From: an uncultured bacterium
GTDB lineage: Bacteria > Babelota > Babeliae > Babelales > Vermiphilaceae
Length of the DNA stretch: 64,000 bases
NCBI GenBank assembly: GCA_963702025.1
Contig: OY969699.1
Coordinates: forward strand, 512,001-576,000
Reading direction: 5' to 3'
Shown piece by piece: positions 12,811 to 51,046 of the stretch. A program made the translations under genes and the position numbers. Every line of letters starts with the position of its first letter. The stretch's first letter is position 1. The notes beneath the pieces were generated by a model. That model was not told the origin of the DNA, did no database searches, and saw only the letters and a program-made list of their open reading frames with translations.

Positions 12811-12895
12811 AATGCTTCGACTCAGCCTTCGCTAAAGCTTCGGCGGGCAGGCTGGGCGTTTACTCCTGAGTTCTCCGAAGGCTCAGCACGAACGG
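12811..12895 (-). repeat. Palindromic element, composite type (near-twin of the tkt insert)
   Basis: Reverse complement ccgttcgtgctgagccttcgg..ctcaggagtaaacgcccagcctgcccgccgaagctttagcgaaggctgagtcgaagca. Confidence 0.85.
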
Positions 12896-13308
12896 AACTA
12901 AATCTGTGAGTGAGGAGAATCAAGTCGAATTATATGGGCGTCATCATCAAAATAAATTATTAAGTATCCTAACATAATAAATGGACATCCTGTCAATAGG
13001 CATAAAATTGCTGATAGTTTTTTTTGATGGTTAAAAAATAGGTAGAGGATATACCGATAAAAATCATGTGTGTCAAAAATTTTTGATTTTTTTTGTTGTA
13101 ACCGGATGACTAACAAGAAGTTCCCTTTTTATTTGCAATATGAAAATAATAGTTTGCTTTCTCAAATAAAAAATGAAGAATATATAGATTCAAAAAAAAA
13201 TAAAAAAATGATTGATTCTACAAGATCAAACCGTTACATTATGAGATAAGTATTTATAATAGCTTTTTCATATAGAAATCATTTTTATATTTTAAGAAGT
13301 CAATTTGT

Positions 13309-37467: not shown

Positions 37468-37652
37468 CCGCTCGTGGTGAGTGCGAGCCCTTCGACCTTG
37501 CTCAGGACAGGCTCCGCGAGCGTACCCGTCCGCCGAAGCTTTAGCGTAGGCTGGATCGAACCATGCGGCCTTAAAAAGAAATTTTGTTGATGAATATTTA
37601 TTAAACCCGCATGGTTCGATACGCAGCCTGCGGCTGCACTCACCACGAGCGG
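37468..37652. repeat. Palindromic element pair with nested sub-elements
   Basis: ccgctcgtggtgagtgc..tcgaaccatgcgg inverted against ccgcatggttcgatac..gcactcaccacgagcgg. Confidence 0.88.
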
Positions 37653-37692
37653 GTTTTATGATTAACTTTTCAATTCTTAAGTTCGAAGTAAC

Positions 37693-47579: not shown

Positions 47580-47688
47580 CCGTTCGTGGTGAGTGATTTC
47601 GAAGAAATCGTATCGAACCATAATTTGAAAAATTTAAATTATAAATACCCTTCGATACGCTCTTCGAGCGGCACTCAGGGCGAACGGG
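47580..47688. repeat. Palindromic element pair (right flank of hydrolase gene)
   Basis: ccgttcgtggtgagtgatttcgaagaaatcgtatcgaacca..cccttcgatacgc..actcagggcgaacggg. Confidence 0.88.
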
Positions 47689-47700
47689 TAATGGTTTTTT

Positions 47701-49042: not shown

Positions 49043-51046
49043 ATGTTACATGGATTAAAAAAATTTCTTGAATATAAAGCATATAAAATGCGGCTTGAAT
49101 CATTGCAAATGACCACCAAGGCCGGATCGGGGCATCCAACATCGGCGCTTTCATGTGCTGATATCGTTGCGGCGCTCTTTTTTTATGCGATGCGATTTGA
49201 TCCGGATAATTTTAACAATCCCAATAATGACCATTTTATTCTTTCAAAAGGGCATGCATCGCCCGTTTTATATGCTGCATGGAAAGAGTTGGGTAAAATC
49301 ACCGAACAAGAATTGATGACATACCGGCAGTTTGGTTCTCGGCTTGAAGGACACGCAACATTGCGCTTTGCGTATGCGGAGGCGGCAACCGGCTCATTGG
49401 GGATGGGACTTTCTATCGGCGCAGGCATGGCGCTTGCCGGACGGCTAGATGAGCGGGATTTTTATACGTATGTTTTGATGGGCGATAGTGAAATTACCGA
49501 AGGATCTATTTGGGAAGCTGCTGAAATCGCTGCCTATTATAAAATGTCACGGTTGGTTGGCATTGTTGATTGCAATCGCCTGGGACAAAGCACACAGACT
49601 ATTCATGGCTATCACGCGCAACGGTATGCACAAAAATTTGAAGCATTTGGTTGGAAAGCATTGGTGATAGATGGCCATGATATGCAGCAAATTGTGGGCG
49701 CATTGGATAAAGCGCGCAATAGCCAGGAGCATCCTACGGTGATTATTGCCAAAACAATAAAAGGATATGGCGTTGATCGTGTTGAAAATAAAGAAGGATT
49801 TCATGGCAAAGCATTTAGCCCAAAAGAATTAGAGGAAATTTTGCCCGCTTTTGAGCAACGCTTTGCGGCAGTTGCCAATAATGGGCTCTCCTACCAATGG
49901 GCGCCGAATTTGCCACCTTATGATAATAACCGTTCGAATCCTTCGACGAGCTCAGGACGAACGGTGAGGGGAAGTGACAATAAGTCCGCTCGTGGTGACC
50001 CTTCGGCTTTCGCCTCAGGAGTAAACGCCCAGCCTGGCCGCCGAAGCCTTGGCGAAGGCTGGCTCGAACCATTCGAGCACATATTATCCATTAAGGAATC
50101 GCACTACAAAAAAGGTGAAGAAATTCCCACGCGCAAAGCATACGGCCAATCACTCACACAACTAGGAGCGGCCAGCAAAGAAGTGGTAAGTTTGGATGCG
50201 GAAGTAAAAAATTCTACGTTCGCCGATATATTTGAAGCAAAATACCCTGAACGATTTTTTCAGTGTTTTGTTGCTGAGCAAAATATGGTGGGCATGGGAA
50301 TTGGCTTTGCGCGGCGCCATAAAATACCATTTATTTCTACCTTTGCTTGTTTTTTTTCACGCGCACATGACCAAATTCGTATGGGTGCGATCGGCATGAG
50401 CCCGTTGCGGTTGGTGGGTTCCCATGCAGGAGTATCAATTGGCCAAGATGGGCCATCACAAATGGGATTGGAAGATATTGCCATTATGCGCGCATTGCCC
50501 GAATCGATTGTGCTCTATCCCAGTGATGCGGCTAGCACTCACGCATTGGTTGAACAAATGGCAAATTATCATCAAGGAATTTCATATTTGCGCACCACAC
50601 GAGGCCCAACGCCGGTTATTTATAATAATGATGAGAAATTTCCTGTCGGCGGATGCAAAGTACTAAAATCAAGCGGTGCGGATAAAGCACTCATTGTTGC
50701 TGCCGGCATCACGTTGCATGAAGCACTCAAAGCATACGATATGTTACTTGCAGATGGAATCACCGTCGCCGTGATTGATTTATATAGCATTAAACCGCTT
50801 GATGCCAAAACGCTTGAACAAGTTGCCACGCAATCGGGCGATCGCATTATTACCGCTGAAGATCATTATATTCAAGGAGGATTGGGCGAATCGGTTGTTT
50901 ATGCTTTGCGTAATACTGCCATCGAGATTCATTGCCTTGCCGTGACACAATTGCCCATGTCCGGAAAACCTGATGAGTTGCTTGCGTGGGCAGGCATAGA
51001 TGCGGCTGCGATGGTGAAAAAAGTAAAAAGTTTGATCAAAAAATAA
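49043..51046 (+). CDS. tkt: Transketolase with in-frame repeat-derived insertion
   Basis: SGHP, SKGH, GSLGMG, GDSE..EG, AEQNM, GQDGPSQ motifs; ~47-aa extra segment in the linker. Confidence 0.95.
   Translation: MLHGLKKFLEYKAYKMRLESLQMTTKAGSGHPTSALSCADIVAALFFYAMRFDPDNFNNPNNDHFILSKGHASPVLYAAWKELGKITEQELMTYRQFGSRLEGHATLRFAYAEAATGSLGMGLSIGAGMALAGRLDERDFYTYVLMGDSEITEGSIWEAAEIAAYYKMSRLVGIVDCNRLGQSTQTIHGYHAQRYAQKFEAFGWKALVIDGHDMQQIVGALDKARNSQEHPTVIIAKTIKGYGVDRVENKEGFHGKAFSPKELEEILPAFEQRFAAVANNGLSYQWAPNLPPYDNNRSNPSTSSGRTVRGSDNKSARGDPSAFASGVNAQPGRRSLGEGWLEPFEHILSIKESHYKKGEEIPTRKAYGQSLTQLGAASKEVVSLDAEVKNSTFADIFEAKYPERFFQCFVAEQNMVGMGIGFARRHKIPFISTFACFFSRAHDQIRMGAIGMSPLRLVGSHAGVSIGQDGPSQMGLEDIAIMRALPESIVLYPSDAASTHALVEQMANYHQGISYLRTTRGPTPVIYNNDEKFPVGGCKVLKSSGADKALIVAAGITLHEALKAYDMLLADGITVAVIDLYSIKPLDAKTLEQVATQSGDRIITAEDHYIQGGLGESVVYALRNTAIEIHCLAVTQLPMSGKPDELLAWAGIDAAAMVKKVKSLIKK
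49930..50071 (+). repeat. Composite palindromic element inside the tkt coding sequence
   Basis: ccgttcgaatccttcgacgagctcaggacgaacgg..ccgctcgtggtgaccc..ctcaggagtaaacgcccagcctggccgccgaagccttggcgaaggctggctcgaacca. Confidence 0.9.

Follow-up and report, generated by a model that had tools for sequence, protein, structure and literature searches.

How does a dispersed hairpin repeat come to lie within the reading frame of a housekeeping enzyme, and by which means could such repeats spread? This question is raised by the transketolase gene tkt of an uncultured bacterium assigned to the Vermiphilaceae. The window, i.e. the whole stretch of 64,000 nucleotides that was analysed, represents G000:C1:512001-576000, where G000 stands for the 1.60-Mb genome of this bacterium, present as one contig with 39% GC. 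Among named records, those with the nearest relatives of one of its genes belong mostly to Candidatus Babeliales/Dependentiae. The original prediction had claimed that positions 49930-50071 are a palindromic mobile repeat, which is translated in frame and adds about 47 amino acids to transketolase. The features around this segment are as follows.

49043-51046, plus strand: transketolase gene (tkt), 667 aa, human-TKT-like type, intact
49930-50078, no strand assigned: whole in-frame insert, a head-to-head hairpin-repeat doublet plus nested module, approximately residues 297-345
49930-49964, minus strand: left hairpin unit of type A with head CCGYTCRYSSTGAG, close to the consensus and sharing 27 identical nt with two further copies in the genome
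49965-49985, no strand assigned: spacer between the two heads, 21 nt, unique in the genome (self match only)
49986-50078, plus strand: right hairpin unit of type A, with the nested module in place of its inner loop
49999-50063, no strand assigned: nested module of 65 nt, combining an inverted type A fragment with a type C hairpin
12811-12896, minus strand: non-coding counterpart of the right unit, likewise containing the nested module, recognised by its BLASTN match to the insert

The claimed origin from an intergenic repeat family was borne out, and the element extends further than predicted, to approximately position 50078 (149 nt in total). A type A unit is an oriented hairpin of approximately 35 nt with the head CCGYTCRYSSTGAG and the tail TCGAASS. 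BLASTN searches with the insert against G000 gave 38 matches at E<=0.01, the insert itself among them, and the match of its right part to the non-coding copy, which had been predicted for 12811-12895, was found as reverse complement with 82% identity over 89 nt (E 8e-19). The nested module has 13 other genomic matches, the best of them with 92-94% identity over 48-49 nt. The insert also differs in base composition, with 61% GC vs 45% in the rest of tkt. The term palindromic stood for the hairpin units but not for the segment as one palindrome. Folding of the whole insert is modest (z -1.74, 7 of 200 shuffles equally good), hence "palindromic element" suits the parts better than the whole, and one long palindrome was ruled out as its structure; the insert is a composite of two hairpin units and a nested module. 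No target-site duplication was recognisable at the insert, the empty orthologues being too diverged to reveal one. The flanks contain an AT-rich inverted match of 7 bp (49922-49928 / 50082-50088), which the related metagenome locus L126 does not share on the right side and which was discounted.

The enzyme that carries the insert looks intact by sequence and fold model. Its product matches NCBIfam NF004559 with 834 bits (cut-off 488), represents the sole Transketolase_N match in G000 (Pfam, genome-wide) and has human TKT as the nearest solved structure. The insert is situated between the domains Transketolase_N (residues 15-265) and Transket_pyr (residues 360-521), as predicted, and the frame is open through it without any stop codon, so that the peptide quoted in the original prediction is indeed present. 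Outside the linker, dN/dS amounts to 0.042 in comparison to L126 and to 0.07-0.10 in comparison to five genus orthologues, i.e. the gene is under purifying selection (0.04-0.10). The AlphaFold model (pTM 0.87) superposes on human TKT with a TM score of 0.94, and its pLDDT falls below 50 at residues 298-343 and 463-472. A low-confidence coil is thus predicted at residues 298-343, and the insert loop is probably unstructured; since positions without alignment coverage are expected to score low in pLDDT anyway, we infer this disorder rather than read it off the model. The N-terminal chain of the naturally split transketolase 6yak stops near the insert region, which fits a tolerant linker. Judged at the DNA level, it is nearly certain that the insert represents a repeat-derived, in-frame and tolerated segment, and it is likely translated as part of transketolase. 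As a side observation, the product is 42% identical to the human TKT type in the structure alignment and 20-24% to typical bacterial enzymes.

The comparison with orthologues reveals how changeable this site is. A tkt match was found in 38 of 41 genomes, and full proteins were obtained from 27 of 30 fetched loci. Measured from FHGK to TRKAYG, the linker comprises 116 aa in G000, and 73 and 71 aa in G002 and G004 from the same genus; the 21 rows that represent other genera range from 69 to 88 aa. The predicted insertion is therefore real, but it lengthens the linker by a net 43-45 aa relative to the two same-genus orthologues with an empty site, instead of by about 47. Neither an equally long linker unrelated to the repeat in close orthologues nor an insignificant DNA match was found; other relatives carry different repeat-derived segments. 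The linker of G007 harbours a plain type A doublet oriented as in G000, the linker of G001 a composite doublet in the opposite orientation (82% identity over 142 nt to the G000 insert), and the linker of G005 a sister repeat of type B. The locus L126, which is 88.7% identical to the window over 3.6 kb, has the left junction in common with G000, and its insert shows a longer spacer and a different right unit and is devoid of the nested module. The differing arrangements in such close relatives indicate that the insert keeps being remodelled.

A tree calculated without the linker places the four insert-bearing genus members in one clade with moderate support (80/83). Hence, the pattern within the genus is accounted for equally well by repeated insertion and by a single old event after which units were nested, swapped and inverted, and an independent insertion in each genus member is not established. 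The linker of L016, a member of another genus that is placed outside the insert clade on the 27-row tree (quick search), contains repeat-derived pieces too. Furthermore, 51 distinct linkers were collected from 80 metagenome loci, and nine long or motif-positive ones were compared with G000. Five of these nine hold repeat-derived pieces; in the other four (L134, L139, L168, L176) no repeat match to G000 was found. The sequences of L016 and of the five metagenome linkers suggest that independent insertions happen as well. What this locus adds is a series of alleles at one site: empty, simple, nested, reversed and swapped.

Transketolase is one of seven housekeeping genes of G000 with in-frame repeat inserts, an insert being counted when it is missing from at least two same-genus orthologues. 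At the DNA level, the claim that the element family makes new peptide segments in housekeeping enzymes is thus well founded. The six other genes are:

G000:C1:308768-310297 (L063): MnmE, two insert sites, the first with two informative orthologues
G000:C1:384641-386122 (L064): UvrC, insert of 71 aa
G000:C1:931906-933651 (L067): ArgS, insert of 31 aa
G000:C1:946868-947491 (L068): GrpE, insert in frame
G000:C1:666101-666988 (L065): HolB, insert in frame
G000:C1:268769-269602 (L062): PgeF, insert of 37 aa

Sister genomes possess other repeat-derived inserts at the second MnmE site (G001, G004, G005) and at the GrpE site (G001, G006, G007), so by sequence comparison both sites display the turnover pattern of the transketolase linker. 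The intragenic inserts use different strands and frames and do not encode one common peptide. Four further ORF-internal repeats were not accepted as insert cases. The repeats in a prepilin ORF (L061) and a TPR ORF (L066) precede the recognisable domain and are probably upstream of the real start, a hypothetical ORF (L069) was not counted as it has no family match, and the repeat of UvrD (L070) is in a variable C-terminal linker without net length gain over the orthologues. We also noticed that UvrC is short across the genus, approximately 425-440 aa without inserts, and has no C-terminal HhH Pfam match, and that apparent frameshifts, maybe sequencing errors, split MnmE (G005, G007), ArgS (G006) and UvrD (G007) (L084-L086, L085-L088, L100-L102, L236).

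Genome-wide, the repeat is abundant and mostly situated outside of genes. The head reads CCGYTCR in G000, and the exact type A head occurs 137 times vs 0-3 times in three shuffles. Only 15 of the 158 repeat regions are wholly inside mechanically called ORFs of at least 120 aa, though such ORFs cover 86% of G000; this is expected if selection purges most insertions into genes. Outward-facing pairs with short spacers were found 18 times, the spacers of the other pairs being similarly short to the 21 nt in the transketolase insert. More type A copies were observed in the window (37469-37664, 47581-47700, 39263 and 46373), among them a cassette derivative without the gene and, between convergent genes, two copies that face inward.

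Three features go beyond the original prediction: the composite build of the element, its remodelling among close relatives and a candidate nuclease as its partner. Eight GIY-YIG matches were found in G000, one of them UvrC. Type A units that face inward enclose the 89-aa gene at G000 1201845, and type B units enclose the gene at G000 490411. At 17 of 26 homologue loci (genome contigs), heads point inward from both flanks, vs 8 of 1464 ORFs of G000, and two of these eight ORFs are the nuclease genes themselves. The tree of small GIY-YIG proteins (50 rows; 55 given, 5 skipped, one duplicate) splits into three branches, which differ in the repeats beside the genes. In the UPF0213-like branch, 35 of 36 rows have two or more type A/B heads nearby, vs 0 of 14 rows outside of it. 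The G000 nuclease has its best PDB matches among UPF0213 proteins, and its Tyr-Tyr spacing of 10 goes with a branch separate from the spacing-11 Ssn-like proteins of the same order. These latter belong to a four-row branch with the tyrosine spacing of SsnA; three rows (L042, L043, L047) showed canonical GTC-headed hairpins by eye, which implies that three nuclease-repeat pairs coexist in the lineage. The third branch is often found beside tRNA genes and goes with the type C hairpin, the same piece that is nested in the transketolase insert. Its genes include G000:C1:1567658-1567912 and 1019370-1019612 (L073, L074) as well as L039, L041, L044, L045, L048, L053 and L055, several of them apparently just downstream of tRNA genes.

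Short cassettes that share the ends of the nuclease cassettes and retain a remnant of the gene's 3' end, but lack the gene itself, are present at several unrelated loci, one of them in the window:

37469-37664, no strand assigned: gene-less repeat-GIY-YIG-repeat derivative, inward-facing repeats around the remnant of the 3' end of the nuclease gene

Two decayed nuclease cassettes were also seen (G000:C1:164698-165163 and 1332233-1332655): nested repeats take the place of the 5' part in one of them, and the other is frameshifted. Across the 41 genomes, at least one exact head was found in 14 of 15 genomes with a strong nuclease match vs 12 of 26 others, bearing in mind that kin are not independent and many genomes are drafts. 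The nuclease gene is present in six of the seven genomes with more than 50 heads. Nevertheless, the co-occurrence is imperfect: G035 (63 heads) and G021 (42 heads) are repeat-rich without a match to the UPF0213-like nuclease, and G029 has the nuclease gene and no exact head.

Several known systems share parts of this picture. Rickettsia palindromic elements (RPE) of approximately 100-150 bp reportedly occur intergenically and in frame in unrelated housekeeping genes, where they are apparently tolerated (work of Ogata et al. 2000 and 2002, as described in PMC10969869, PMC2229807, PMC3733652). The repeat of G000 is alike in being palindromic, intergenic as well as in frame in unrelated housekeeping genes, and in its small-genome host-associated bacterium; it forms a dispersed family with non-coding copies, and the in-frame insertions in Tkt and the six other genes are missing from orthologues. 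However, it comes from a different phylum and has a different sequence, its copies are modular (doublets, nested units) and use several frames and strands, so that no single conserved peptide results, a candidate mobilising nuclease is linked to it, and the same site is refilled differently in relatives. The CGTC-tagged REPs are described as short oriented hairpins, often head-to-head dimers and mostly intergenic, with neither a dedicated transposase nor a RAYT; some of them interrupt genes without breaking the frame, e.g. uvr, helicase and tRNA synthetase genes (Di Nocera et al. 2013, PMC3733652). Oriented hairpins, head-to-head dimers, a mostly intergenic location and the lack of RAYT are common to both. 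In contrast to these REPs, the G000 head contains CGYTC, which is one base longer than CGTC; two hairpins, with an inner stem that can be exchanged, make up the unit, and the repeats are accompanied by a partner nuclease gene. A terminal CGTC, TGTC or CCTC tetranucleotide was not found in the G000 repeat. Since the tag differs by one base and a common peptide is lacking, we keep the repeat out of the RPE and CGTC families; GTCATCC heads at the homologue loci L217 and L221 indicate that the repeat types may grade into each other.

The closest precedent for the nuclease is the Ssn family (cd10448), in which a single-domain GIY-YIG gene is bracketed by inverted oriented NTS/SRM hairpins that are also dispersed genome-wide; SsnA cuts ssDNA beside the NTS and affects transformation, mobility is only proposed, and NTS are rarely found in genes (2%) (Chenal et al. 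2025, PMC11893778). The G000 nuclease is likewise a single-domain gene of approximately 90 aa flanked on both sides by its own hairpin, and its catalytic Glu follows 47 residues after the second Tyr. It differs by its separate branch and its Tyr-Tyr spacing (10 vs 11), which together with the UPF0213 matches serve as proxies and point away from the cd10448 clade, and seven housekeeping genes of G000 hold inserts, compared with the rare genic NTS. The published SRM pattern gave two matches in G000, neither in a repeat region, vs 3-4 in shuffles, in a test of low sensitivity, as the loosened pattern caught one of four Ssn-like flanks. In REP/RAYT systems (REPtron, REPIN), an enzyme gene is flanked by its palindromes and accompanied by many non-autonomous doublets carrying a GTAG tag. 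The nuclease gene flanked by palindromes and the many gene-less doublets of G000 resemble this arrangement, but the GTAG tag is absent, and the HUH Y1 transposase (Y1_Tnp/RAYT, PF01797) gave no match in G000 (95% complete; the control was found in 6 of 14), and RAYT was set aside as mobiliser. A literature search, with subscription papers mostly outside its scope, found no description of these repeats in Dependentiae or of repeat-flanked UPF0213-type genes; the supplements or Fig. 5a of PMC11893778 may already mark the nuclease clade.

The explanation that we favour, with moderate confidence, is that the insert represents a non-autonomous hairpin-repeat pair, in frame and likely translated as a tolerated loop, and that the repeats likely spread by the UPF0213-like GIY-YIG nucleases which they bracket. 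Its starting points are observations, i.e. repeat origin, frame, selection on tkt, nuclease linkage, gene-less derivatives and allele turnover; the nuclease-driven mobilisation is argued by analogy. A hairpin-repeat pair would have landed in frame in the inter-domain linker of transketolase. By analogy to SsnA, the UPF0213-like nuclease would recognise its hairpin in single-stranded DNA and nick beside it, and repair or recombination with other copies would then insert, nest, swap or invert units. A repeat already present in a loop would be a substrate attracting further such events, which would explain the turnover at the linker, while selection would purge gene-breaking copies and leave in-frame copies in loops and linkers. 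The explanation is weakest where it passes from cutting to spreading, because PMC11893778 demonstrates cleavage and an influence on transformation but puts mobility forward only as a proposal. More tentatively, and possible rather than probable, proteins of the UPF0213 branch could be the transposases of undescribed hairpin-ended mobile elements, whose gene-less units favour re-insertion into, swap with or inversion of earlier copies; loops once seeded (transketolase linker, MnmE, GrpE) would become hypervariable, and the same enzyme class could be the missing mobiliser of Rickettsia-type coding palindromes.

The most serious competitor for nuclease-driven spreading, though doubtful, is that the repeats serve as nuclease recognition sites and spread by host recombination or by replication slippage at hairpins, the nuclease being a passenger that restricts incoming ssDNA like SsnA. 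It is consistent with the modulation of transformation by SsnA, for which no transposition was demonstrated (PMC11893778), with the ability of inverted-repeat recombination to give nesting, inversion and arm swapping, and with the repeat-rich genomes that lack the nuclease gene. However, genomes harbour several nuclease paralogues, situated at unrelated loci and each paired with a repeat type of its own, and these together with the dispersed gene-less derivatives look like a mobile unit; the head motif is also strictly conserved. It is very unlikely that the repeats represent MITEs on which an ordinary host IS transposase acts in trans. At least two multi-copy IS-like elements do exist in G000 (G000:C1:313080-314204 with a 374-aa ORF and 152766-153395 with a 209-aa ORF, each with several further copies), but the repeats bracket GIY-YIG genes in many genomes, the Y1 transposase match is absent in G000 and a target duplication was not seen.

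It is also unlikely that the inserted peptide or mRNA hairpin was recruited for a function, such as the regulation of transketolase or its transcript. An insert of some kind persists at the site in L126 and in each of the four genomes sampled from one clade, but the peptide is unconserved, differing in strand, frame, family and length among relatives, and two genus members and most other genera are without it. Highly improbable, finally, is a removal of the insert from RNA or protein in the manner of an intron or intein, or an assembly artefact. Rfam searches across the window gave nothing at the gathering threshold and at the insert only chance matches (E 1.2 and 7.6), the frame is kept in every validated intragenic copy, and L126 carries an insert independently. 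Contigs from public runs cover the left junction with most of the insert (49811-50072 with 1 difference, 49806-50001 with 0 differences) and the right junction (49993-50243, 0 differences), and no joint skipping the insert was found among them (4 runs, one study); as the runs belong to one study and maybe to the source sample, they argue only modestly against mis-assembly.

The transketolase insert alone is a good example rather than a discovery, and a single insert of this kind is probably neutral. To our knowledge, no mobiliser has been identified for the coding palindromes of Rickettsia, which have been known since 2000. Here, one genus unites genes with in-frame inserts, a nuclease cassette that is intact, derivatives of it without the gene, and alleles of one site that are empty, inverted or swapped, which makes the question of the mover testable with a 90-aa protein and a 35-nt hairpin. 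If our preferred explanation is true, the idea of a site-specific ssDNA nuclease would extend to a second GIY-YIG branch. The alleles also show a route by which loops of core enzymes quickly gain and exchange sequence. Hairpin repeats are also embedded in longer GC-rich multi-copy non-coding elements of G000 (G000:C1:480311-480703, 482083-482511, 684238-684511 and 1216133-1216549), some of which presumably resemble group II intron ends.
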